Assembly: GCA_017992195.1 (NCBI GenBank)
Contig: JAGOPC010000011.1
Location: 1-27,071 of the forward strand
Length of the DNA stretch: 27,071 bases
Direction of reading: 5' to 3'
From: Patescibacteria group bacterium
Lineage (GTDB): Bacteria; Patescibacteriota; Gracilibacteria; Absconditabacterales; Absconditicoccaceae
Of this stretch, positions 1 through 26,567 are shown one piece after another. Numbering within the stretch: position 1 is the first letter of the stretch; every line of letters starts with the position of its first letter. A program made the translations under genes and the position numbers. The notes below the pieces were generated by a model. It did not search any database, had not been told where the DNA came from, and saw only the letters and a list, made by a program, of their open reading frames with translations.

Positions 1-689
1 TCCATCGGTTACTGCTGCTCATTGCACCGACGTCGCTGATTGCTCTCTATTTCATCCGTAAACTTCCTAAAGAAAAAATCACACTCAATCCACATTCAAA
101 GGCCCATCACTATAAAGACATTCGAAGGAATATTAAAAACATGCCAAGAAAACTCAGGACATACGGGTTTATTTATTCGGCAAGAAGTGCGTTTAATTCG
201 CTCTTGTGGCTCATCATTCCACTTTATATCTTTGCGGACACAAACAACATTTATCTCGTGGTGATAAGCGGGGTTTTGATGAGTATTCCGAGTTTATTTT
301 CATATCAGATAGGTAAGATCGCTGACAAACAAAACTCCTCAGCGATCCGGCATTCGTTCGTGATGATCGGCGTGCTCTTTCTCTCGTTTATCATGATGCC
401 ATGGTATCCGGGGAAGCTAATTATATTGTTTGTGCTGGCGGTGCTATTCGTTTTCCTTTGACTCACTATCGACAATCTCTCGAACAGATTCGTCCACCCG
501 CATCAGTATGGCAGAGTAGAGGCGACCTTCGAAATCTTCGGGGCATTTGGCTCTATCATCGGACCGATCATCGGATGATTTTTCATGGATGATTTCGGGA
601 TTATGACTATGATGCTTATCATGGGAATCTCAGCGCTGAGTGTTAGTATCTTCTACTATCATAAGCAGAAGTATCTACAACATACATAA
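1..689 (+). CDS. MFS-type transporter, C-terminal part (5' end outside the window)
   Basis: The frame starting at nt 3 is open from the window edge to TAA at 687-689. It reads through two TGA codons (459-461, 576-578). The product is very hydrophobic, with MFS-like segments (IGKIADK..., FGAFGSIIGPIIGGFF). Confidence 0.6.
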
Positions 690-818: not shown

Positions 819-2339
819 ATGCAGGAATTTGGCTGGAAGAAGCCTGAAATCAGAGGTCGGAAGTTTTATACAAAACAGATAAACTGGTGTTTTGTTATTT
901 TGGCATTCACTGCTTTCGCATGTTTCGCATTTTATAATAATGTTTCAAGGCTCGTCTTCGCCGAAAATAAGACCGACTTGTTCCAGAACAACCTCGAGGA
1001 TCTGGCCTTTTATTTCATGGGCCGGGATCAGGATACCGCTAACCTGCTCATGTCGATCGATAGTGTAAAACGCAATTACGCAAAGGGAGATGCCAACTTC
1101 ATCAGAGACAATAAGGGGAATATGGAATATATCCTGCAATATCTCTCTAACCATCCCGAACAGCTCAAGCAACTTGGCCTTCACTCATACTCAGGAATCA
1201 TCGACGTCATCAGCGACATCTCAAAATATAATGACGATATTTTCTCGCTGCTGGGAGAAACAGAGGAGCAGAGATATCTTGTGGTCTTACAAAACAGTGC
1301 TGAAAAACGCCCAAATGGCGGTTTCTTCGGTTCATTTGCGATCGTAACGATCAAAGATGCGACGATCACGAACATCCAGCTGATGGATAGCTACTATCCA
1401 AATAAGCTTGATCCAAGCGCTACAATTAAGGCCCCCGACCGAGCGACTAATACGTTCCTTTCAGGCGAAGACACCATCACTTTCCTAGCATCAAACAAGT
1501 TCGGCTTCACCGATATGGACGGAAAGAATATTAAGGCGATCTACGAAAAGGTCTTCCACAAAACTGTCAGAGGAGTCATCTTCCTCAATTCACAGGCTTT
1601 TGCGGATCTCATCCCAGGCTTCGACAAGAAACTCAGAGAGTGGATGTTTACGAACGCTGCGACTGACATCATCCGCGGCGGAAACTTTCCGAACAAGAAA
1701 GAGCACTATCTCAAAGAGGTGGCAGAAATATTGAACAGTCAAAAGGATACTCTTATCAAAAACATGGTAAAAAATATCCGCTACCTTCTGGACAACAACT
1801 ACTTCCACGTCTATCTCGACAACGCCGGAGGCGGACTTACCAAATCTTTAGTGACGCAAGGTCTTACAACTAGCTTCCGCGACGATCAGATCTACTTCCG
1901 GGATTACAATAACGCCTACAATAAGATCGACATGTTCATCAAGAAAAATATTGTATTCACGGACATGAATGGAGAAAGAGTGATCGATACCTCGAAAGAT
2001 ATTGTTGATATAAAGAGTTTGGCGACAGGAACGTATAATGTTTCTATCAGCTATGCATTAAGTATACCGCCGAGCTACCCGCAGGAGATTGAGGATCTCG
2101 AAAAGAAGTACGGTATAGAACTGACGATCAGAGAGAAAACAATCTTAGGTCTTTACGCAGCACGGTCAACGAGAGGAGTTGTCTATGCGCCGAAGCATGT
2201 CGTTATCTCAAACGTTGAGGGTCAGCAGAAGTCGAGCCAGCTCTTCGACACACCATTTTCTCATAACGCGCTGTATATCCTGCAGAACGGGACGGATAAC
2301 ACTATAAAGACCGTAAGTATGCAGATTGAGATCAAATAA
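819..2339 (+). CDS. DUF4012 domain membrane-anchored protein
   Basis: 506 aa ORF running from ATG to TAA. It has an N-terminal TM segment (WCFVILAFTAFACFAFY). The motif LVVLQNSAEKRPNGGFFGSFAIV matches the hallmark QNxxExRPxGGFxGS of DUF4012. There is no internal TGA. Confidence 0.7.
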   Translation: MQEFGWKKPEIRGRKFYTKQINWCFVILAFTAFACFAFYNNVSRLVFAENKTDLFQNNLEDLAFYFMGRDQDTANLLMSIDSVKRNYAKGDANFIRDNKGNMEYILQYLSNHPEQLKQLGLHSYSGIIDVISDISKYNDDIFSLLGETEEQRYLVVLQNSAEKRPNGGFFGSFAIVTIKDATITNIQLMDSYYPNKLDPSATIKAPDRATNTFLSGEDTITFLASNKFGFTDMDGKNIKAIYEKVFHKTVRGVIFLNSQAFADLIPGFDKKLREWMFTNAATDIIRGGNFPNKKEHYLKEVAEILNSQKDTLIKNMVKNIRYLLDNNYFHVYLDNAGGGLTKSLVTQGLTTSFRDDQIYFRDYNNAYNKIDMFIKKNIVFTDMNGERVIDTSKDIVDIKSLATGTYNVSISYALSIPPSYPQEIEDLEKKYGIELTIREKTILGLYAARSTRGVVYAPKHVVISNVEGQQKSSQLFDTPFSHNALYILQNGTDNTIKTVSMQIEIK

Positions 2340-3758: not shown

Positions 3759-6047
3759 TTATTTCTTCTCTAAAAATCTCGCTTCTATCTTCCTCACACC
3801 AAACTTTTCGTTCTGGAATTTGACGACAGCGGTGTCACGTCGGACTTCGATGACTTCGCCGACACCGAAGAGTTTGTGCTTGACGATGTCGTGTTCGTTA
3901 AGATCAGTTTTCACCGCGTAACGGCTCGTTCAAAATCAGCCACCAGTTGATCTAGCACCAGAGGCAGCGGTCAGGTCGAACATCTTCTTGAGTTCTTCCG
4001 GAATCTCGTCAATGAAGCGTGATGACTGATTGTATTTGGTTTGTCATCGCTGCTTACGAGAGTTCGCATGTGAGAGGAAGAGATGGTCTTTAGCACGCGT
4101 GATAGCGACGTACATCAGACGTCTTTCTTCTTCCATCTCTGCATCGTCAAACGCTGCCTTCGGCAAAGGGAAGATGTTTTCTTCCAGTCAGACGAGGAAT
4201 ACGACCGAGAATTCGAGGCCTTTGCTGGCATGTACGCTCATGAGCTTGACGGCTTCGAGTTGTCCATCAGTATTCTCTTCGATATCTGTCATGAGCGTCA
4301 CCTCTTCGAGAAATTGGGTCAGAAGGACCATGCCATTTTGCGCATCTTCGACTTCGTCACTGTCATATCTCGAAGCTATATTTATGAGCTGACCGATATT
4401 TTCGTACTTTTCTTCACCGACTTCACGTCACTCAGCTTCTATCAGGTAATCCTTATATTTAATAGTTCTCACCAATTGCTCGATCAACTTTGCGGGCGTC
4501 AGCCCGTCTGCAGCCTGACGAAGAAACTTCATAGATGTCATAAACTGGCTGATCGCCTTCTGCGTGGACGGTCCTAAGACCACTGGAAGCATATCGATCT
4601 GTTCTGCGACATCCGAAAAGGTCGACTTGTTTTGCTGAGCGTACTCTTCGAGCTTCGCGACACTGTCGGTTCCGATCTTTCTTTTCGGCGTATTGATGAT
4701 TCTTTTCAGCGCTACGGAATCTCTGGGATTCAGCAAATATTTCAGATACGACATCACATCCTTTACCTCTTTTCTTTCGAAGAATTTGAAACCACCATAG
4801 ACCTTATACGGTATAGCTTCCTGGAGGAGTACCTGTTCAAAGACCGCAGATTGCGCATTAGTCCTGTAGAGGATGGCGAACTCAGCCCGAGACTTGTTCT
4901 TGTCGGTCTTGAGCTTTTTCATCAAATCGATGAGTGTCATCGCCTCATCGGTCTCATCACCATGGGTGAAGACCATGATTTTTTCGTCACCGGAACGGTG
5001 AGGTACGACAGTTTTGTCGTACTGGTTTTTGTTATGTTTGATGATGAAATTTCCCGCGTGAACGATATGCGGACGTGAACGATAGTTAGTTTGAAGTTTA
5101 AATATTTGAATATCAGGCCACACTTTTTTGACCTCGAGAAAGTTCTCCATCACCGCACCACGCCGGCGATAGATCGACTGGTAGTCATCACCGATAAAGG
5201 TAATATTCGCGCCACCACCGGTCAGCTGCTTCATCAATTCAAACTGAATTCGGTTGGTATCCTGCGCCTCATCCACAAGAATATAGCGAAATTTCTGCTG
5301 CCAGCGCTTCAAAATATCCGGATTATTTTTGAATATTAAATACGGGACCAGCAACAGATCGTCGAAATCGCACATGTTACACTCGTGAAATTTCTTCTCG
5401 TAGCGCTCGTAGATCATACCCATCGTCTGCTCGTAACCATCACTACCATGGCCAAACTGTTTCGCCGTGATTCCCTGTCATTTCAACTTTGAGATAAACG
5501 AGCGAGCCTCCCTCACCTCGACATCGTTTTCCATCTTCAGATCCTTAATAATCTCCTTCAGGATCGACTGTGCCTCCTGCTCATCGTAGACACCAAAACT
5601 GCCATTTCGCGGCAATCCCTCAGCGTTTTTCATCTCCTCCTTGAGGAATCTCAGAAACATCCCATGAAAGGTGCCAATCCGCTTAAATGATCAAGAGTGA
5701 AAACGAGGAAGAGATCAGACATTATTATCTGCAGCTTCATCGGAAATCATCTTATCAAAATCCATAACTTCTTCCGTCTTTCACACCTGCATTTTTTCCG
5801 AGATCTCCTCGGCTATCTTCACAAGTCTTTCCTTCATCTCATTCGCTGCCTTATTGGTGAATGTCACCGCCAGCACCTGATCGGATCTGACCTTTTTTTC
5901 AAACAGCAAGTATCAAATCTTGTATGTCAAAACTCTCGTTTTCCCTGAACCTGCACCCGCCAAGATAAGAGCTGAACTATCAGTATGTAAGGCAGCTTTC
6001 GTCTGCTCATCATTCAACTGTCCGCGTATATAATCCTTAATATCCAT
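3759..6047 (-). CDS. pcrA: ATP-dependent DNA helicase, PcrA/UvrD family (SF1)
   Basis: Single frame of 762 aa from ATG (6045-6047) to TAA (3759-3761), with 10 in-frame TGA and no TAA or TAG. Family motifs present: [69 protein letters not shown] (that G is a TGA), [15 protein letters not shown], and a C-terminal [10 protein letters not shown]. Confidence 0.92.
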
Positions 6048-6130
6048 GAGCTTTTTCAACGTATAATGAAACAAACGTTCTACTTCTAACGATATCTTCT
6101 TTTAATGCAATACCAGCGCATTTTTTACCA

Positions 6131-9281: not shown

Positions 9282-10343
9282 ATGCAGCTAAAACTAGACT
9301 TTGTATACGATAACGTGCAAGATGCTTTTATCAAAAATGGGATCACTAATGAGTCAAAAGAGCTTTGACCCTATATTTTTATGTTTCTACAAAAGAAAAA
9401 AGACGACATACAAAGAGTATTAGAGCTGTCCACGCAGATAAAATGGGTGCAAGATCAATTTGTGTGAGCGAATTTTCCAAGAAATTATACAGACGCTCTT
9501 ATAAAGGTGGTATTGAAGAAAAAACTATTTAATGAGCTTGTATGGTTGATCGATGACAGCTGATATTTACGCTGAGTAAAAGCTGTAATTAAAAAGAACC
9601 AGGAGATGAAAGAAGACGGATATGGATTTTATCTGAAGAATAAGGGGAATAGTAAATTTCCGAGATTTTGATCATTATCGCTTGGCTACTCAAGAGTATC
9701 ATTGGCCTATCTTCTTCAGAAAATTGTGAAAGACGTGGAGAAGTTTAAAAAAGCATATGAATGATTGTATAGTTATCATAGTACTGCTCGAGATCCTCCC
9801 AAAAGTAAATCCAAAGCACACGAAGATACACTGAGGGACGTGCTTGAGTTTATCGTAGGTGGCGGGCGAGACATAGAAGACGATGATATAGGAAACTTCT
9901 CCAGATTGCGTGTTGCGCTTGTACAAGATATCAGATCGACATGACTACCCGATGAGGTTCTGGAAGAGCTTGAAATGCGTTTAAAAATCAAGGAAAAGAG
10001 CGAACGTAAAACATTGTGAGACGCCGACAGCCAACAAGACTTTTTGGAAGCATTTTTCTGCTACTTCAGCTTTATGGACGCTATCCCTGCATTTATCGAA
10101 AAGCGAAAGAGCGGTGAACAAGGGAAGCAAGAGCTGATCACTGATTTCACTATCAAATATCATAATGATCCTCATGTAAATCCTAGACTTATCGGCATGT
10201 CTCCTTCTCAGCTTGGAACAAAGGAATTTGAAAAGAGATACCAAACACGAGCGAACCAGGAGTATAAGGATAAAGATGGTCTGAAGAAGAAAAGAAGAGA
10301 TATCATTGACGATGGAACAATGTTTGCGGATCAATACTACTAA
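9282..10343 (+). CDS. hypothetical protein (353 aa), visible only with TGA=Gly
   Basis: Frame 0 has no TAA or TAG from 9252 to TAA at 10341-10343. It contains 8 in-frame TGA (9366, 9465, 9561, 9573, 9669, 9762, 9942, 10017). The ORF track shows only its last 99 aa (10044..10343). A consensus promoter lies directly upstream. Confidence 0.7.
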
Positions 10344-11380
10344 ACCAGATTTTCCGGCATCCGATCTATCTTAAACCCACGACCTACCATATTCAATTTT
10401 TCAAAAGCTCCATCTAAAAAAGGACGCACTCACGCTCATTTTATCACGATATTATATCTATACTTGTCGTGCATCTTGTAAACGAGGGGAGGAGTAGCGT
10501 AGATTTCCAGCTTATTCTCTGATTTCTCCGCGAGAAATAAGAGCTCCTGATAGAGCTTGTTAACTGTCGTAAACATCTTCTGTTCGATCTCATTTTTATA
10601 GAGGACCACAGCGATCTCAGTGTAAGGAGGATAGAGATGATCCTCACGAAATTTCTTTTCTCCCAATGCGAAGGCCTCAACATCTCTGTTACACGCGCAA
10701 CGGATAGCGGGACTATCAGTATGATATGACTGCACGATGATATTATCAGCGTAGTTGTCAATAATACTCGACAGCGTCGTAAAGGTCTTTTCATGCGACT
10801 TATAGTCGGGGATGTGCAGGCCGCTATCCGCATTGAATATAATCACCAGATCCGGCTTCCGGTCTTTCGGCGGAGTCGCCAGCAACGATGTTCAAACGAT
10901 AACCTGCGCATCCTGCAAAAGCGGCATCAGCTTCTTCACCTTTGCCTGACTGTTGGCCGTTTCCGAATCTATCGTCAGCACTCTCATCGCCCCAAACTCT
11001 TTCTGCAATAGCCCCTCGAGCTTCTGCACGCCACTTCCATAGAGCTTAATATTATGGCCATGACACTGTGGACACTGCCCAAACGAACTATAGTGCTTCT
11101 TACAGATATGACAAATCCCATAGAGCTCGCCATGCACATCCTGATGAAACGCAATCGGGATATCACAATGATCACACTTCGGCACAAGTCCGCAATCATC
11201 ACACAGCATTCCAGTTGCAAAGCCCTTTTTATTCGCGATGATCAGCACCTTCTTACCCTCCTTTATCATCTTACGAATCCCACCATCGGCCAACGACGAA
11301 AATCCTGAAGCTGTCCTATCCTGCTTCATATCAACCAAAAATATCTTCTTATCCGCGCGCTCAAAGCGTTCATAATTCAT
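10340..11380 (-). CDS. priA: PriA-like protein, C-terminal half only (Cys-rich Zn region, helicase lobe 2 remnant and C-terminal domain)
   Basis: 346 aa from ATG (11378-11380) to TAG (10340-10342) with 3 in-frame TGA (10892, 10436, 10430). All four CxxC pairs are intact: CDDCG..CDHC..CHIC..CPQC. It has IVGTS (G is a TGA) matching PriA IGTQ, and a C-terminal KIDRMPENLV resembling the PriA tail. There is no Walker A or DExH part. An upstream in-frame stop lies at 11447 and a terminator sits 40 nt upstream. The motif VI position reads IIDNYADN instead of QVAGRAGR. Confidence 0.75.
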
Positions 11381-11477: not shown

Positions 11478-12503
11478 CTATTTTACCGCAACTGATTGTT
11501 GTCTTTTTTCCAACTCACACCATAAATCCGACGGAATCATGTTACACATAAAGGTAACCAGTTCGTGAAACTCCAGGCCAGCAACTGATCTAAAGATGTA
11601 GTTAAAATTAAGCTCTGCCGCAAACGGCATCTCATATGCTTTACAATGTTCAACATACGAAGCATAGTCTATGATCGGATTCTTATGAAAACCGCTCAGC
11701 ATCTTATCCTCGATAGCCACACTAAACAGTAGAGGATTTTCAAAGCTACCTGCTACGAATATCTCAGAACAAACAAAAGGAACCGGACCTAAATGAGAAA
11801 TACCCTGATGAAGACTAAAAAGCACTCTGCCTACGCCCGGTTCTGTTATTCCTTGCACGGTAAAAGCCCTGAGAAAGGCAAGCATTTCTTGCGTATAGTT
11901 CAGCTCTGCATTAAACTTTTGCGCAGCAGCCTTAGAACTTTCAATCGCGTTATAGAACTCCTTTCGCATACTAACCTTTTTGCTAGGATCAGTAAATTGC
12001 ATATCACCTGATTTCGAAATAGTTTCCACTAAGCGCCCATATGTACCTTCTGGCATATATAAGTGAGGTAAACGAGCCTTATAATCAGCAGGGATACTAG
12101 TTGCGATGAACTGTAATAAATCAGCCACCGGCAACGCTTCCATCATGTAGTCGAACACATTATAGTCTATTGCCTTGAAATCATGAACTGTGCAATAATC
12201 ATAATAGTTACTATAATCTTCCATCGGTACATGCTCACATATCGCAATACTCAAACTGTTTCTAAATACGATACTCAACAGTTTTCTTTCGAGAAGAGAG
12301 TATACCATACATGTCACATAATAGTCATTATTTTCTTGCTCTACTAAATAGACAAGAGAATACCGCGACTGATTATATTTGAAGACAATTTTCCATTTAC
12401 CGTGAGGTGCCTGCTGCGATGATTTAATCTGAAATAATGTTGAACTTTTCATACAAGTTTTTTTTGATGTAATTAATGTTAATGTCCGCGTCATTATTGA
12501 CAT
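11478..12503 (-). CDS. hypothetical protein (341 aa)
   Basis: ORF ends in TAG and has no internal TGA. It has its own promoter and terminator. The ATG at 12501-12503 lies 5 nt downstream of a -10 box. Alternative starts are ATG 12491 or the later MKSS Met. No motif recognised. Confidence 0.6.
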   Translation of the reverse strand: MSIMTRTLTLITSKKTCMKSSTLFQIKSSQQAPHGKWKIVFKYNQSRYSLVYLVEQENNDYYVTCMVYSLLERKLLSIVFRNSLSIAICEHVPMEDYSNYYDYCTVHDFKAIDYNVFDYMMEALPVADLLQFIATSIPADYKARLPHLYMPEGTYGRLVETISKSGDMQFTDPSKKVSMRKEFYNAIESSKAAAQKFNAELNYTQEMLAFLRAFTVQGITEPGVGRVLFSLHQGISHLGPVPFVCSEIFVAGSFENPLLFSVAIEDKMLSGFHKNPIIDYASYVEHCKAYEMPFAAELNFNYIFRSVAGLEFHELVTFMCNMIPSDLWCELEKRQQSVAVK

Positions 12504-12508
12504 TTCCA

Positions 12509-12536
12509 ATCTTAATCATGGACGGATATAAGTCAA
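12509..12536 (-). promoter_or_regulatory. sigma70-like promoter, TTGACT-N16-TAAGAT, predicted leaderless
   Basis: On the - strand: -35 at 12531-12536 and -10 at 12509-12514. The ATG begins 6 nt after the -10 box. Confidence 0.5.
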
Positions 12537-12582
12537 TCACAATTACAGTAGTTTTTTGGCTTCTTTTCCTTAGAAATAAGGT

Positions 12583-16987: not shown

Positions 16988-17845
16988 TTAGAAAACCTCT
17001 TTACTCGTATCCGGCAAAGCGCAATAATTAGCGATAGCATGCAGCGCCTTCGGGTTGATCGCACGCTTACGGAAGGTCCTTGTGTACCCGATCACGCTAA
17101 GAGCAGAGACCACATCACCAGAGATGCGATAGGTGAACACGTGTCTCGTCCGGTCTGCCTGCAATTGCGTATCAGCGATCAGCTGGGCAAAGGTCGGATT
17201 GGCACTTGAACCCGGATTGAAGACAGTACAGCGATCGGGCAGAAACTTCTTGGCGATAAAATAGGCGATGGTTCCACCGAGAGAGTGACCCGTCACCCGC
17301 GCCTTATAGTCAGGATATAGTTTTTTTGCTTCCTCATAAACATGAACTGACACATTGAATCTATCGTTCCACGATTGCGTTCCGAACACTATGTGCAGGT
17401 CACTAATATAGTCCTTCACCTCAGTAAACTCTGTCCCCCTGTAGCCGATAATCCGTGTCTTAAGCGCATGATTCACATAGAGCGCATACTCAAACTCGTT
17501 GAACTTTTCATCAAGCTCATAACCAAAAATATGTCTCGGGCGCTCGAACGGATTGAGATAAACTCTGTCCGAAATATAGGCACAAGGCAGATCCTGCGGA
17601 TCCAAGTTTATATCATCTTCTTCAAAAACCTTATCAAAAACTCCCGAAAATGACGTATGAATACTTTCCCACTGGCTCTTTATACCTTCCGTGGGGATCG
17701 ATTCCATGATTCCACCAAAAAAATTGCTCTTCTCGGCAATATAATCCACCGGCTTCTTGAGCGTCTTACTGGTCACATCGAGCGCATCTTTTCCGAATAC
17801 ACTGAGCGACGACCACATATTCTTGAAAGCAGAACCTAATCACAT
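16988..17845 (-). CDS. class-3 lipase-like alpha/beta hydrolase
   Basis: GHSLGG nucleophile elbow (VTGHSLGGTIAYF) preceded by YRGTE, as in the lipase_3 family. Stop is TAA. The start is taken as ATG 17843-17845 (MGLGSAFKNMWSS, with one TGA at 17840) because a -10 box ends 6 nt upstream. The alternative start is ATG 17818. Confidence 0.7.
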
Positions 17846-18312: not shown

Positions 18313-19044
18313 CTAAGAAAGCAGTTTCCTGATAATCTCCAGAGCGCGAGTTTGATCGATAAAATAAGGAGAAGTCGCAATCGTAACAACAGCGGCAGAG
18401 GAGATAAGCTGCTTTAGCAGGCTGATTTTATGATCTATGTCCGTTTCATGAGCGAAAAAATCTATGTCGATATCTACGATATAAGATCATAGAGCGTAGT
18501 TCATAGATCACAGATTTTGTACCACCTCTTCTAATGTAAACTCGGTTCTTATCTGAACGCACTCATGAATAAGTCATGAGCGAAGAGCGGGCTGGATGAA
18601 AGAGGCTATCTGCGTCTTGGTGTTCACATATTCAGAAATATAATCGAGATCTCATTGCCTTTCCTGATCGATTCGTTCCGCAGGCTCGTTCATATCGGCG
18701 TGCTGATCGATGTGGAGGAGAGTCATTCACTCTGTAATTATTTTGTTGCGCAACGCTTCATATCGAAAGTAAAGAGCGTGGTTGTGATTGTCGGTGATGT
18801 AGATGGTCTTATTATGGCTCACTATTCTCAGCAATGATTTCAATCCCTTGCACGGTACAAGCTTACCATCTTCAATCTCTTCAAAAACGATATTTTCTCA
18901 CAAAAGGAGATCATCCACAGTTCAGTCCACTACTTGCGCTATGTGCAATTTTCCGTGTGATCACAAAGCCATTCTTTCGACATAGGAGATCGCATTATTT
19001 CCTACTGGCTCGGTGAGTCGGGTCTCATGTGTATAAAAGTTCAT
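18313..19044 (-). CDS. UPF0489 family protein (C5orf22-like, putative metal-dependent hydrolase fold)
   Basis: 243 aa from ATG (19042-19044) to TAG (18313-18315), with 8 in-frame TGA and no TAA or TAG (checked triplet by triplet). It is absent from the ORF track. Its motif series ITDNHNHALYF / LLHIDQHADM / IVDIDIDFF / VTIATSP parallels VVEDHQEVLPF / FLHFDSHPDL / VLDIDLDFF / VTIARSS of UPF0489 proteins as I recall them. Confidence 0.75.
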
Positions 19045-21481: not shown

Positions 21482-21841
21482 ATGGATAAAGAAGCAAACG
21501 GAGAAAGATTATTACGCACGATAGCTTTAGCTTTTGAACTCTTCTTATCATACATGCAACAAGCCGCACTCTTTACGCAGGATACGTTGGATAAACACAC
21601 AGTCCAGGGGAACAATATGAAGGCAATCTTTCAGGAAAAAGAGGAAGGGAAGTACGATGTTGTACTCGAGATCAATTCACATAAGTTTCTTATCAGCATG
21701 AAGCCAGGACGAACAGACCTCGAAGAGTTCGAAGTGATCGCCATCAAAGGCTTCGTCGAATACAGCCGCGACGTCATCCAGGCACTCAAAGATATCGTCA
21801 GCGATGTCTGTTACGGAAAGGTGCACGAAGCAGCATATTAA
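21482..21841 (+). CDS. hypothetical protein (119 aa)
   Basis: ORF from ATG to TAA, 25 nt upstream of trxA and probably co-transcribed with it. Confidence 0.5.
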   Translation: MDKEANGERLLRTIALAFELFLSYMQQAALFTQDTLDKHTVQGNNMKAIFQEKEEGKYDVVLEINSHKFLISMKPGRTDLEEFEVIAIKGFVEYSRDVIQALKDIVSDVCYGKVHEAAY

Positions 21842-21866
21842 TTTATCAACTAACTCATTAAAACTC

Positions 21867-22229
21867 ATGGATATCATCGGAGCAACCAAATTCAACGAAC
21901 TTATCACAACCTCAGATAAACTTATCATGGTGGACTTCCGGGCAGAGTGGTGCGGACCTTGTCGTATCCTCAAGCCAGTTCTCGAACAACTCGCTGAAAA
22001 ATACGCTGACAAAGTTGAGCTCGTCAAAATAGACGTAGACGCTCAGGATAACTATCCACTCGCTGTTGAGTACCAGGTAAATAGCATCCCACAAGTCACT
22101 TTCTTCAAGAACGGAGTAAAAGTCGACCAGTTCATCGGCGTAGTACCACCGGTAAGAATCGATGAAATCATCAATCAGCATGCGGGCGATATGGCAATTC
22201 CAAGTAAGGATTCGCCGATGGCAGCGTAG
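21867..22229 (+). CDS. trxA: thioredoxin
   Basis: 120 aa with LIMVDFRAEWCGPCRILKP (WCGPC active site) and the thioredoxin-fold order (VDVD...IPQVTFFKNG). The start is taken at the internal ATG 21867 of ORF 21804..22229. Stop is TAG. Confidence 0.88.
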   Translation: MDIIGATKFNELITTSDKLIMVDFRAEWCGPCRILKPVLEQLAEKYADKVELVKIDVDAQDNYPLAVEYQVNSIPQVTFFKNGVKVDQFIGVVPPVRIDEIINQHAGDMAIPSKDSPMAA

Positions 22230-22498: not shown

Positions 22499-23566
22499 AT
22501 GTTTTCACCTACTATCCCTTATAATGATCTGCCTTTGCTGCCAGGAAGCTATAATTTTCATAAACCCGAGCATATACAACTTGCCCTGCGCGCGAACCAA
22601 GCGCTAGGTAAGCTTGACGGATTATCACTTCTTTTGCCTGACTATACGCTACTTATAAGTCCTTTACTGGCAAAGGAATCAGTAGCCAGTAATGCTATAG
22701 AAAATATCAATACCACCACTATTGAATTCTTACAAAAAGAGGCGACGGGATCTAAACTGTCAGGAGCGGAAAAAGAGGTTGCATATTATCGTACAACTCT
22801 TCTTCAGGGGATGAGTCTTCTCGAAAAGGAAGGAGGTATTTCAACGAATATGCTTATACATTTACAAGCGATCATAGAACCCGATAAGACAGGTATAAGA
22901 AAAATCCCTGGTACTGTTATCGCGAATAGCACGGGAGAAGTTCTATATACCCCACCCGAGGGAGAACACAAAATCAGAGATCTTCTGGCAAATCTTGAAA
23001 GTTGGATCAACAGCAATGATGGTATTGATTCTCTTATAAAGATGCCCGTTATTCACTATCAGTTTGAGTCGATCCACCCATTTTACGATGGTAATGGAAG
23101 AATAGGAAGAGTCCTCATGATGCTCTATCTTATGCTCACAAAAAAAATACAAAAACCTGTATTATTTCTCAGTTCATATATCCTTCAACACAAGCAAGAG
23201 TACTACCTATCTTTAAAAAGAGGTGAAGAGGAGCATAATTATGATTCTATTATTACCTTTCTTCTTACCGGTATCATAGAGCAAGCACAGGTGACACAAG
23301 AGAAAATAATAGCCATAAACGCATGCCTGAATAAGTATATAGGGATCTTCCAGCAACTTAAACTGAGAGATTACCATCTTCTTGCTACAACATTTTTTAG
23401 ATCCGCCTTCGTTTCGATAAATACGCTTACCGAAATCAGCAACCTTTCGAGACAATCTCTTTCTCTTTACATAAAAAAACTTGAGGACAAAGGTGTAGTC
23501 AAAACAATTAAAGTGTGATCACACAAGTTAGCATTTATACCTGAGTTTATTGAGCTGATAAAGTAA
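22499..23566 (+). CDS. fic: Fic/DOC family AMPylase with Fic_N region, internal inhibitory motif and C-terminal wHTH
   Basis: It has the Fic motif HPFYDGNGRIGR. The N-terminal SNAIEN fits the (S/T)xxxE(G/N) inhibitory helix. The C-terminal LTEISNLSRQSLSLYIKKLEDKGVV is wHTH-like. The standard stop TGA (23516) is read as Gly, giving a further 15 aa (GSHKLAFIPEFIELIK) up to TAA at 23564-23566. Confidence 0.88.
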
Positions 23567-23576
23567 GTAATACAAA

Positions 23577-23601
23577 GGAAGAAGCTCGATGCTTCTTTTT
23601 T
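23577..23601 (+). terminator. rho-independent terminator
   Basis: Stem AAGAAGC/GCTTCTT, loop TCGAT, followed by a T run. Confidence 0.6.
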
Positions 23602-23633
23602 ATTTATCCAAAGTTAATGATGCAGCTTTATCA

Positions 23634-23661
23634 TTGCATTATATTCTCATATTCGTAAGTT
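23634..23661 (+). promoter_or_regulatory. sigma70-like promoter, TTGCAT-N16-TAAGTT
   Basis: -35 at 23634-23639 and -10 at 23656-23661, 40 nt upstream of the ATG at 23701. Confidence 0.45.
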
Positions 23662-23700
23662 AAACGGAAGTTTTTACTTACAGTTTTATTTCTATTTTGA

Positions 23701-24666
23701 ATGGCTAAAAAGATTCCTACGCGGAAAAAGGTAGCATGAGCAATATTAGGAACGGGAATATTAGGAGGCTGATTTTTAGCTTATCCTAGCTTTATGAGCC
23801 AGCAAAAAGCATCTTTAATAGATGCTGCTACAAACTGTAAAACTATATATGAATTTTCATGAAACCATTCTGTGTATCATTTTAAATGAGAACAAACTGA
23901 ACTAAACATAGAACTAAAAAATCTTTCAGAGGGAACAATATGAACAACGGATGAGCATAATCATAGTACAAGAAATTGTAGAATAATGTACATGTATGAC
24001 AATACCAGCACTGGCTATCAAAATATAACCTGACTGATAGCAAAATGAGAAAGCAGCTTCTTAACTATCCCTGTACAAACTCATTCTATAGGCAATACAG
24101 GTAAAATTTCAGTAGATTTAGTTTGCACAGATCAACGGAGTAATAGTTGCAGCCCTGAAGGGAAAGCATTCCTAGCAGACTATAAGGAAATTGATCTAAG
24201 TGGTTTAAGAATATTTATAGTATCGCAAATACAAGGAGTCGACAATTTGAACAATAATATTAAAGATTTTAAAAAAGAACTCTGACGAAAGAACATGAAG
24301 GCGATATCTGTGTATCCTAGTGTTTCCATAGGTAATCCTGGATATGCAGTAATTTTATATAACGAAAAACGCTTTAACGCACTTTGACCAGAGTTAGCGT
24401 TTATAAGCAGGAAACTACAGTTGAGATTTTCTCATTTTAACTATATAGTGTCATGAGCAATCAATGATGAAAACTTTAATGAGCATTTTTGAAATCTTAA
24501 CGACTGCACCCTCCCAGACGATAAAGGCAAATTGGCTTGCTCTTTAGACGGCTACTATTTTGATAACATAGCAGATAATTTTGTTTTCAGTAAAAGAATG
24601 CTAATGAATGATACAAATTTAGAAACTATTGATTTCATTGTAGATATTCCAAGAGTGAAGCCTTAA
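23701..24666 (+). CDS. membrane-anchored hypothetical protein (321 aa), visible only with TGA=Gly
   Basis: The ORF track reports no ORF of 60 aa or more across about 1 kb here. Frame 1 from ATG 23701 to TAA 24664-24666 has 11 TGA and no TAA or TAG in a visibly AT-rich stretch (checked codon by codon). It has an N-terminal TM (VAGAILGTGILGGGFLAYP), then a polar domain containing several Cys. Confidence 0.7.
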
Positions 24667-26567
24667 CCTCTCTCAGCTAACTCCAACCACCTAGTCTCTT
24701 TCTCGCCTAATACCTTCGTAATTTCACCCATTTCCTTACCTAATTTCTTCATCTTATCACCATCTAGCATCTCTCCCTGATACATGAAATTGATCTCATC
24801 AACTCTTTTTTCGAGGACGGAAATTTCTTTGCCAAGGGTGTCCATTTCGAGCTTTTCTTTGTAGGAAAGCTTTTTCTTTTCAGGGAGGACGGCGGCTTCT
24901 TTCGTGGCTTCCTGCTTTTGTCTTTGGGCCTGCAGTTCTTTTCTTTCGAGTTGTTGTTGCTCGGATCTGTGAGCCACGTATTCACTGTAGGATCCTCGGA
25001 AATCTGTGACTTTGCCGTCTCATTCGAATGCAAAGATATGGTCGACGATACGGTCCATGAAAAATCTGTCATGAGAAATCACTATTAGGCAGCCCGTATA
25101 GTCAAGGAGGAACTCCTCAAGGATCGCGAGGGTGACGAGGTCGAGATCGTTAGTAGGTTCATCGAGTATCAGGAAGTTTGGATTTTTGATAAGAACCATG
25201 AGTAAGTGGAGACGTCTTTTTTCACCTCAGCTCAGTGTGCTTGCGAAAGCTTGTTGTTGAGCGGGGGAGAAGAGAAAGCGTTCGAGCATTTGTGAGGCGG
25301 TGAGTTTCTTTCATTTTGCGACGAAAATATATTCGGCAACATCTCTGACGACGTCGATGACTCTTTTATCGGTTTGGAAGAGGGATTGCGTTTGCTGGTA
25401 GTGACCCATGTAGATAGTCTTTCACTGTTGGATATCGCCGCTGTCGGCCGGTTCTTCGCCGGTGAGGATATTCACGAAGGTGGACTTTCAGACACCGTTT
25501 TTGCCGATGATACCAACGCGTTCGCCATGTCTAAAGTCATGTGAAAAGTCACGGAGAATAGGCTTATCACCAAAGGATTTTTTGAGGTGGTGGATCTTGA
25601 GGATCTTGTCACCCATTCTTCTTTGGTTCACTTCGATGGTGAGTTTTTTGGCTTTTTCATTCAGTATGCTTTTGCTAGCTTTGTAGGTATCTTCCAGCTC
25701 TTCAAAATCTTTGATCCTCGCATACTGCTTCGTTCTTCTAGCGCCGGGAGCTCTGCGCATCCGGTCAAGCTCGTGCCTTCGGAGCTGTTTCATATTGTGG
25801 ACGGTTTTTTGCTCGAGCTCTTCACGCTGCGCTTTCTTTTCGAGAAAGATTTGATAGTTACCGTTGTATGAGTGGATCTTTCCTCTGTCGAGTTCGAGGA
25901 TATTGGTACAGACGCGTTCGAGAAAGTAACGATCGTGCGTGACGAGAAGTAACGTTAAATGAGATTGTTTTAAGTAATTTTCCAGCCGTTCGATCATGTC
26001 GAGATCAAGGTGATTAGTAGGCTCATCTAATATGAGGAAATCAGGTTCATCGAGGAGCGCCTTTGCAAGAGCGACACGTTTTGCTTCACCTCATGAGAGT
26101 GATCACATAGGGGTGGTGAGATGTTGCGTGAGATTGAGCTGACCGATGATAGTCTTCACTTTCACTTCGTACTCCCGGGCATGGGCTTCTTCGATCTGGT
26201 GGAGGATCTTTTGCATCTCGTCTTCGCTGTGGTTTGGATCGAGGAGAAGAGCCTCGTAGTGTCTGATGAGTTGTCATAGTTCGTTCTCATGCGTGAAGAG
26301 CGCTTCAAGAACAGGCATATTTGGATCTACTTGAAAATCTTGAGCGAGAAAAGAGACGCGCACATTCTTCGTGAAAGTAATATCGCCCGCACTTCACTCA
26401 AGCTGACCCATGATGAGCTTGAGAAGTGTAGTTTTACCTGCGCCGTTCTGCGCAACGAGAGCAACCTTCTGTCACTTTTCGATGGCAAAATTAACATCCT
26501 GAAGCAGGGGTTTCCCGGTGAATGACTTATAGAGCTTTCTGACGAGGAGGTATTGCATGAGGTTCAT
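24663..26567 (-). CDS. uup: ABC-F family ATPase with C-terminal coiled-coil domain (Uup-like)
   Basis: 634 aa in one frame from ATG (26565-26567; alternative 26558) to TAA (24663-24665), with 10 in-frame TGA. It has two NBDs: QNGAGKTT and GKNGVGKST (middle G is TGA 25488). LSGGE occurs twice (a G is TGA at 26091 and at 25227). LILDEPTN occurs twice. The C-terminus is a charged coiled coil. Confidence 0.92.

Follow-up and report, generated by a model that had tools for sequence, protein, structure and literature searches.

UGA is established as a glycine codon in the Absconditabacteria/SR1 (PMC8080830), and 48.9% of the proteins predicted from the Vampirococcus genome have no recognizable domain (PMC8080830). 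We studied a gene that seems to belong in this company. It lies in a 27,071-nucleotide stretch of DNA from contig JAGOPC010000011.1 (the window, by which we mean the whole stretch), between a fic gene and a convergent gene for an ABC-F ATPase. An earlier reading of the letters alone, which we call the original prediction, had described it as a complete gene for a membrane-anchored protein of 321 amino acids, hidden in a 1-kb desert of open reading frames (ORFs). When read with genetic code 25, in which TGA encodes Gly, the gene is real and intact. It has a handful of distant relatives, all in recoded genomes, and its product is probably a protein of the cell envelope.

Under translation table 11, the ORF list of the window has no entry of 60 amino acids or more between 23519 and 24662, as the original prediction had said. 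Many other genes of the window are also broken by TGA under table 11. If only TAA and TAG are treated as stops, the forward-strand frame that contains position 23701 is open for 335 codons. The candidate coding sequence runs within this frame from an ATG at 23701 to a TAA at 24664-24666 (321 codons), and it includes 11 in-frame TGA codons, no TAA or TAG, no TGG, and 15 GGN codons. The long frame with 11 TGA was thus described correctly, and so was its position in the window's most AT-rich part: the GC content (GC) of 23501-24500 is 0.321, versus 0.37-0.47 for the remainder. The gene itself has a GC of 0.333, with 0.27 at third codon positions (GC3).

An open frame of this length is not expected by chance. 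At the composition of the target region (33% GC), TAA or TAG should appear about once per 16 codons, and given the regional composition, a run of 321 codons with neither would arise with a probability of about 2e-9 per frame. Each of the remaining five frames over this stretch has 11-32 TAA or TAG codons. In 2,000 first-order Markov simulations of the gap region, the longest open run across all six frames averaged 89 codons, and the maximum was at most 200. When scored with a codon model that had been trained on the remaining genes of the window, the target frame also came out at the top of the six (-0.11, versus -0.43 to -0.83 for the others). The absolute score was below that of every training gene (0.07-0.33) because of the unusually low GC3. 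The 1-kb desert is an artifact of reading the window with table 11, when the whole window uses code 25. The original prediction was right that it holds a complete gene, but the gene was not truly hidden: the ORF had already been called in public data (P0001 and P0002, described below).

Two ATG codons in this frame could serve as the start, the first at 23701 and the only other at 23794. A Shine-Dalgarno sequence is absent from most genes of the window and gives no basis for choosing between them. We prefer 23701 because the N-terminal hydrophobic segment that it includes is kept in all of the relatives.

That TGA encodes Gly can be seen from the conserved genes of the window. The ABC-F gene aligns with EttA from E. 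coli (4fin, E = 2e-93), and 5 of its 10 TGA codons fall on Gly, while none fall on Trp. These sites include the Gly of the Walker A motif (GxNGxGKST), both LSGGE signature motifs, and two further conserved Gly. Similarly, when the UvrD gene (3759-6074, reverse strand) is compared to PcrA (1pjr), two TGA codons are at Gly, including the Gly of VFLIGMEEGIFP, and none are at Trp. In the thioredoxin gene of the window, the conserved Trp of WCGPC is written TGG. A tRNA scan of the 27-kb window found no tRNA gene.

The ABC-F gene also indicates where the DNA came from. Its nearest relatives among species-representative genomes (48-58% identity) are from metagenome-assembled genomes (MAGs) that are labelled Absconditabacterales, SR1, or 'Peribacteria', and these genes have 2-24 in-frame TGA codons each. 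The ABC-F matches from Saprospiraceae and Peregrinibacteria have none. These matches are indicative of a source within the recoded Absconditabacteria/SR1 - Gracilibacteria clade, as judged from one marker gene (ABC-F) with no phylogeny.

We then searched for relatives of the target. A word-indexed search of 5.8 billion proteins with the single sequence returned only the ORF itself, and single-sequence and profile searches of this kind together found nothing beyond the gene itself and P0004. When 1.84 billion representative proteins were searched exhaustively with phmmer, three distant relatives came up: P0003 (E = 1e-18, aligned over residues 37-320), P0004 (E = 4e-12, residues 68-320), and P0005 (E = 2e-6, the C-terminal 116 residues). 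When their DNA loci (L083, L084, and L085) were re-extracted with code 25, the proteins had 346, 331, and 331 amino acids, and P0005, with 126 amino acids, proved to be a code-11 fragment of the full-length gene at L085. The only addition from a scan of metagenome contigs was L086, which is 100% identical to L083. Among about 15 billion proteins, the family numbers just four distinct members, all of them in TGA-recoded genomes. The relatives have a GC of 27-30%, and each has 8-9 in-frame TGA codons and 0-1 TGG, which agrees with the original prediction that the gene belongs to a code-25 lineage.

Although the homologues are just 27-30% identical, five Cys, four Gly, and a C-terminal motif of 13 residues are retained in them. 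The four-member alignment has 42 invariant columns. Among these are C93, C142, C150, C269, and C280 (C46 is common to the target and L083) and G134, G154, G168, and G214. Other conserved motifs are LSG, RF242-243, and the C-terminal NLxIDFIxxIPR. The alignment also bears on the genetic code. Among 105 family-internal pairings, TGA is opposite a GGN Gly codon in 20 and opposite another TGA in 12, and it is never opposite Trp; the background frequency of Gly is 6%. At columns 154, 168, and 214, where Gly is invariant, the codon in L083 or L085 is TGA, and the TGA codons for residues 111 and 116 of the target have Gly or TGA opposite them in the relatives. The code-25 reading of the original prediction is thus borne out by the ABC-F, UvrD, and family-internal alignments, and these argue firmly for translating the target with code 25 (TGA = Gly) and not with code 4. 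With Gly at the TGA positions, one stretch of the target reads ...NITGLIAKGESSF...

The original prediction had reasoned that the target has the highest TGA density in the window and so must be native to a code-25 lineage. The density is indeed the highest among the tabulated ORFs and the conclusion is right, but the margin is tiny (3.43 TGA per 100 codons, versus 3.29 for the UPF0489 gene at 18313-19044) and the argument is weak. We consider the gene native to code 25 because of its relatives and the Gly alignments instead. Across the genes of the window, the share of TGA was not significantly correlated with gene GC (Spearman rho = -0.12, p = 0.61). Of the 12 Gly codons in the UPF0489-domain gene (reverse strand; Pfam, E = 9e-14; GC of 0.42), 8 are TGA (67%), as compared to 42% for the target.

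To compare synonymous and nonsynonymous differences, we used the closest pair, L084 and L085 (48% amino acid identity), and the Nei-Gojobori method with TGA = Gly. The proportions of nonsynonymous and synonymous sites that differ (pN and pS) were 0.325 and 0.698, for a ratio of 0.47, while the shifted-frame controls on the same nucleotide alignment gave 0.87 and 1.32. These values point clearly to a reading frame under purifying selection. Two checks that the original prediction had proposed, a search for homologues and a comparison of synonymous and nonsynonymous change, came out in favor of a coding sequence: full-length homologues with a conserved frame exist, and the ratio in the true frame is coding-like. 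Taken with the open frame, the comparisons identify the target, as far as sequences can, as a real and intact protein-coding gene.

Two other accounts of the frame need to be weighed against these results. We took up TGA = Trp (code 4) first, given the 11 TGA and no TGG, and the motif alignments rule it out. Under code 4, the target would encode a Trp-rich membrane protein (3.4% Trp), as public translations P0001 and P0002 have it. TGG is scarce across the window, several of the TGA codons are in contexts that look natural for Trp, and the one at residue 264 is opposite Tyr in all three relatives. However, TGA occurs at the invariant Gly of Walker A, of the ABC signature motifs, of the UvrD motif, and of three columns of the family itself; the Trp of the thioredoxin motif is a TGG; and no TGA is opposite Trp anywhere that we aligned. 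We regard code 4 as hardly credible. The frame might instead be a decaying or nonfunctional ORF, either a pseudogene or a newborn one, that is open merely because TGA no longer stops translation. Such an ORF might well lack a recognizable promoter and Shine-Dalgarno sequence and have an atypical composition, and the target has these traits and scores lowest of the window's genes on the codon model. But a missing Shine-Dalgarno sequence is uninformative where most of the window's genes have none, and relaxing TGA does not account for the lack of TAA and TAG in 335 codons. Also, a nonfunctional ORF would not be expected to have full-length homologues with conserved Cys, Gly, and C-terminal motif and signs of purifying selection, and three independent assemblies agree on the sequence at 100% identity. 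This account is very unlikely.

Public records of these proteins are affected by the choice of code. P0001 is the same ORF as the target, but it begins at Met32 (290 amino acids) and has Trp at the TGA positions; it derives from an NCBI contig of 27,073 nucleotides, which is evidently the window. Its cluster mate P0002 has the full 321 amino acids, again with Trp at TGA, and comes from Logan SRR11088367 and ENA ERZ27275549. In the large protein collection, the target is present only with Trp for Gly (at 9-11 positions), and in P0001 in shortened form as well, and correct translations with Gly are absent. The L085 homologue is represented only by the 126-residue code-11 fragment (P0005). Evidently, code-25 genomes in this collection were called with codes 4 and 11. 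Exact look-ups in the public record of the code-4 and code-25 translations of the target, the ABC-F protein, and RsmH gave no match. Mistranslated or shortened entries hamper homology search and structure prediction for recoded lineages, and, as the window comes from a bacterium with UGA = Gly, any table-11 ORF track of it is misleading, with deserts and fragmented genes that are artifacts.

As for the protein itself, the original prediction had proposed an N-terminal transmembrane anchor followed by a polar domain that contains Cys. The first 10 residues are basic (KKIPTRKK; net charge of the N-flank, +5), and the 19-residue Kyte-Doolittle hydropathy reaches its maximum (1.41) at residues 11-29 and is lower everywhere else. 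The equivalent segment of the three relatives has values of 1.98-2.79 and an N-flank charge of +3 to +6. All four members have a hydrophobic stretch of 18-22 residues and no other hydrophobic segment. Residues 32-321 of the target are polar (isoelectric point of about 5.8) and contain six Cys. We did not see, by eye, a lipobox or a clear AxA cleavage site after the hydrophobic segment. The basic-plus-hydrophobic segment and the polar Cys domain are thus present, but in the target itself, the segment is below the threshold for a transmembrane helix.

From this architecture, we think it probable, if well short of certain, that the target encodes a lineage-specific, fast-diverging, membrane-anchored extracytoplasmic protein of the envelope or surface of a code-25 bacterium. 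The product would be inserted into the cytoplasmic membrane via its N-terminal basic-plus-hydrophobic segment. This segment would most likely act as an uncleaved signal anchor, since neither a signal-peptidase site nor a lipobox is apparent, and the positive-inside rule and the basic N-flank suggest an N-in/C-out orientation. The remaining 290 or so residues would lie outside the cell, first as a beta-rich region (residues ~49-175) and then as an alpha/beta region (residues ~180-320). The six Cys are candidates for forming three disulfides, and disulfides between the conserved Cys probably stabilize the extracytoplasmic part. We suspect that the protein has a structural role in the envelope or contacts the host or the environment, rather than being an enzyme of central metabolism. 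We favor an envelope or surface role because the family diverges far faster than its housekeeping neighbor (see below) and is confined to a clade of host-dependent bacteria. The weak fold matches (also below) speak for it too, as all of them are to Ig-like beta-sandwich modules from proteins that are secreted or on the surface.

Several observations weigh against this reading or limit it. The family has just four distinct members, which makes the conservation statistics thin. For L084 and L085, the ratio of nonsynonymous to synonymous substitution rates is about 0.2, but the synonymous rate is saturated, so the ratio has qualitative value only. The hydropathy of the target's segment (1.41) is below the usual threshold of 1.6 for a transmembrane helix, so anchoring is less certain for the target than for its relatives. 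The AlphaFold2 model, which was built with Trp at the TGA positions, has low confidence: the predicted local distance difference test score (pLDDT) is 57.5 and the predicted TM-score (pTM) is 0.52. By region, pLDDT is about 45-68 in the beta-rich part (residues ~49-175) and up to 70-84 in the alpha/beta part (residues ~180-320). A model of the C-terminal domain, from fragment P0005, also has low confidence (pLDDT of 60), and a fold search with it gave no significant match. In Foldseek comparisons with the PDB, the query TM-scores did not exceed 0.25, and the matches were all to generic modules of the Ig-like beta-sandwich type. Finally, the function is read from the architecture only, and nothing in the curated families matches. 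In searches of Pfam, NCBIfam, PHROGs, PADLOC, and PDB-sequence profiles, there was no match to the target: the best scores were noise (TIGR04365, E = 0.14; Rot, E = 0.14), as were all of those from the PDB sequence profiles. A search for paralogues within the window found none.

The three relatives have a common genomic setting that differs from that of the target. None of them are near fic or an ABC-F gene, and all three are convergent to the gene for topoisomerase I (topA). Between L083 and L085, TopA is 83% identical and the family member is just 35% identical. The family thus holds a fixed chromosomal site in the relatives' genomes and, by this comparison, diverges much faster than its housekeeping neighbor. 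The short ORFs between the family member and topA are not conserved. The copy in the window lies elsewhere, in the lowest-GC segment and beside a defense-type gene, a pattern compatible with relocation or with lateral gain from another code-25 genome. Contigs of about 1.2 kb from Logan SRR11088367 and ENA ERZ27275549 are 100% identical to 23538-24813 (L001) and 23555-24734 (L002) of the window. Each contig ends just beyond the target in both directions, with one break at the end of fic and the other within the 3' end of the ABC-F gene. The breaks could be due to low coverage of the AT-rich segment or to strain-variable flanks.

Other readings of the target can be weighed as well. It could be cargo of a mobile element or prophage, such as a superinfection-exclusion or defense membrane protein that was acquired along with the SoFic gene, and not a native envelope gene. 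In keeping with this, fic and the target have the lowest GC of the window's genes (0.38 and 0.33, versus about 0.42-0.46), the target scores lower on the codon model than every other gene, PADLOC lists SoFic as a defense gene, the contigs of two independent assemblies end on either side of the target, and there are KilA-N, Rep_1, and restriction-related genes around the L083 homologue. However, the target has no match in PADLOC or, at E <= 1, among the PHROGs, and a scan of 2.9 million viral contigs gave 119 pattern matches and no confirmed relatives, so the suggestion in the original prediction that the gene might be native to a phage of the lineage found no support. The conserved position convergent to topA in three other genomes, with divergence in place, looks like vertical descent. 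In addition, no integrase, repeats, or tRNA flank the target in the window, and there is a terminator between it and fic. We consider mobile cargo to be distinctly improbable. A further, speculative reading, to which we give only a little more credence, is that the family is a rapidly diversifying surface protein, specific to the clade, with which UGA-recoded episymbiotic or predatory bacteria within the candidate phyla radiation (CPR) contact their hosts (in host range or attachment), and that the window holds a laterally exchanged allele. If so, the contrast between 35% and 83% identity beside topA would stem from an arms race against hosts or phages, and the different site beside SoFic and the foreign-looking composition of the window's copy would reflect lateral exchange. 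Somewhat more credible, although still unlikely, is that the protein is not anchored at all: the N terminus would be a cleavable Sec signal peptide and the Cys domain would be released as a soluble protein, for example as an effector that acts on a host cell. A basic n-region followed by a Gly-rich and moderately hydrophobic h-region, below the transmembrane threshold, is typical of signal peptides, and an even Cys count is fitting for an exported protein. But the hydrophobic stretch is 18-22 residues long in all four proteins and is transmembrane-like in the relatives, and no AxA-type site or lipobox was seen right after it. Overall, we still prefer the membrane-anchored envelope protein.

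The upstream neighbor of the target is a SoFic-type Fic gene. Its active site (HPFYDGNGRIGR) is intact, and it has its own inhibitory motif, SNAIEN. Under table 11, the TGA at 23516-23518 ends the gene 16 codons early. The original prediction had noted that the target is directly downstream of fic. The position is as stated, but we found no sign of a functional link: a terminator separates the genes, SoFic is self-contained, and the relatives do not have fic as a neighbor. A strong hairpin with a T-run follows fic, which is why we consider the target to be a separate transcription unit; a terminator scanner reports this hairpin as well, on the reverse strand. The inhibitory motif [ST]xxxE[GN] is not conserved in the target's family, and 0 of 3 relatives have a fic neighbor. 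By these signs, the target is predicted to be transcribed separately from fic and not to encode a Fic partner.

The original prediction had also given the target its own promoter. The two hexamers exist (TTGCAT at 23634 and TAAGTT at 23656), but they match the sigma-70 consensus at just 6 of 12 positions and were not called by the promoter scanner. Promoter-like sites occur in the region at the rate expected by chance (6 found versus 5.6 expected), so this claim was not sustained. Scans of the desert with Rfam models and for tRNAs gave nothing credible; the top hit was L20_leader, with 19 bits versus a gathering score of 58.7 bits.

On the other side, the TAA stops of the target and of the ABC-F gene overlap in the palindrome TTAA (24663-24666), with no intergenic space or terminator. 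The L083 homologue likewise overlaps a convergent downstream ORF by 4 nucleotides (10924-10927). We compared the target by tblastn with code 25 to 80 loci around ABC-F homologues, including those of the nearest code-25 MAGs, and found nothing below E = 0.08, which implies that the order of fic, target, and ABC-F is not conserved in those genomes.

Table. Features of the window and positions of the family in the loci of the relatives
Feature	Sequence	Position	Strand	Basis or remark
Complete code-25 coding sequence; predicted membrane-anchored protein of an orphan family	window	23701..24666	+	open frame, chance test, codon score, homologues, pN/pS
Predicted signal-anchor or signal-peptide core, codons 11-29, VAGAILGTGILGGGFLAYP, Gly-rich, hydrophobic	window	23731..23787	+	Kyte-Doolittle; preceded by KKIPTRKK
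Span of TGA (Gly) codons	window	23737..24492	+	11 in-frame TGA
Starts of TGA codons	window	23737, 23770, 23860, 23887, 23941, 24031, 24046, 24283, 24385, 24454, 24490	+	residues 13, 24, 54, 63, 81, 111, 116, 195, 229, 252, 264
Six Cys codons, residues 46, 93, 142, 150, 269, 280	window	23836..24540	+	five invariant in the family
Most conserved family motif, NLETIDFIVDIPR, residues 306-318	window	24616..24654	+	invariant N306 L307 I310 D311 F312 I313 I316 P317 R318
SoFic-type Fic gene, 355 amino acids under code 25	window	22499..23566	+	Pfam Fic_N, Fic, SoFic-like_C; PADLOC SoFic 2e-88, full length
Intrinsic-terminator-like hairpin after the fic stop, 11-bp stem and T-run	window	23575..23609	+	-12 kcal/mol, z = -3.5, 0/200 shuffles as good
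Promoter of the original prediction, TTGCAT-N16-TAAGTT (unsupported)	window	23634..23661	+	6/12 consensus matches
ABC-F ATPase, convergent neighbor	window	24663..26567	-	EttA 4fin alignment; 10 TGA
MFS transporter fragment	window	141-689	+	Pfam 4e-8
DUF4012	window	819-2339	+	Pfam 7e-12
Class 3 lipase	window	16988-17845	-	Pfam 3e-7
Family member	L083	10001-10927		
topA	L083	12073-14550		
Family member	L084	485-1480		
Downstream ORF	L084	1508-1675		C-terminus of TopA
Family member	L085	6793-7788		
topA	L085	8624-11101		

We also made some observations on other genes. The ORF at 10340-11380 (reverse strand; 346 amino acids) looks by eye like the C-terminal half of PriA, with CxxC zinc-binding and helicase C-terminal motifs, and just upstream of it is an ORF of 354 amino acids (11478-12542, reverse strand) with no Pfam match. 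These two could possibly be a split or highly diverged PriA. The thioredoxin ORF (21534-22229, forward strand) has 231 codons under code 25, with the domain at residues 117-213 only, and its N-terminal 110 residues are rich in Ser and Lys and look noncoding by eye. The real start is probably the ATG of MDIIGATKF... at about 21864, so relaxing the TGA stop leads to over-long ORFs in the window too. In the scan that gave the domain matches at 141-689, 819-2339, and 16988-17845, six of the 10 window proteins had no match in Pfam, which is in line with the high content of orphans in such genomes. Downstream of the homologue at L083/L086 are two small predicted lipoproteins (L086, 931-1248 and 1594-2028, both on the reverse strand). 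The Gly of the lipobox is TGA in one of them (LLSgC) and GGN in the other (LAGC), which is an additional illustration of UGA = Gly.

How does the target compare to known systems? An ORF directly beside fic and on the same strand recalls the class I pairs of a Fic toxin and its antitoxin (VbhT-VbhA, for example). The antitoxins of this class are small proteins of the cytoplasm; they are co-transcribed with fic and provide an [ST]xxxE[GN] helix. In contrast, the Fic protein here has its own motif (SNAIEN64), a terminator lies between the two genes, the neighbor is a predicted membrane protein of 321 amino acids, and its relatives are found without fic. The fold comparisons suggest another set of possible counterparts: the top matches to residues ~49-175 were Ig-like beta-sandwich modules from secreted or surface proteins (the N-terminal domain of dextranase, 5axh; transglutaminase, 1l9m; and MA_4588, 2l0d). 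With 7-14% identity and query TM-scores of at most 0.25, this is at most a resemblance of fold class, and no evidence for homology or function.

The closest parallel is with the hypothetical membrane and surface proteins of the type found in Vampirococcus lugosii, which have the same UGA = Gly code, have no detectable domain, are restricted to their clade, and are predicted to be in the membrane or outside the cytoplasm. The target's family is not named or described in the sources that we searched, and it has no similarity to curated families. It is absent from curated libraries and extremely small, yet it is an ordinary orphan for such genomes. As one of many orphans of the clade, the target opens no new question on its own. 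It does add one uncharacterized, fast-evolving, and probably surface-exposed family to a CPR clade whose machinery for interacting with hosts is hardly known at all, and it would be a reasonable candidate to include in screens of envelope proteins from Absconditabacteria or Gracilibacteria.

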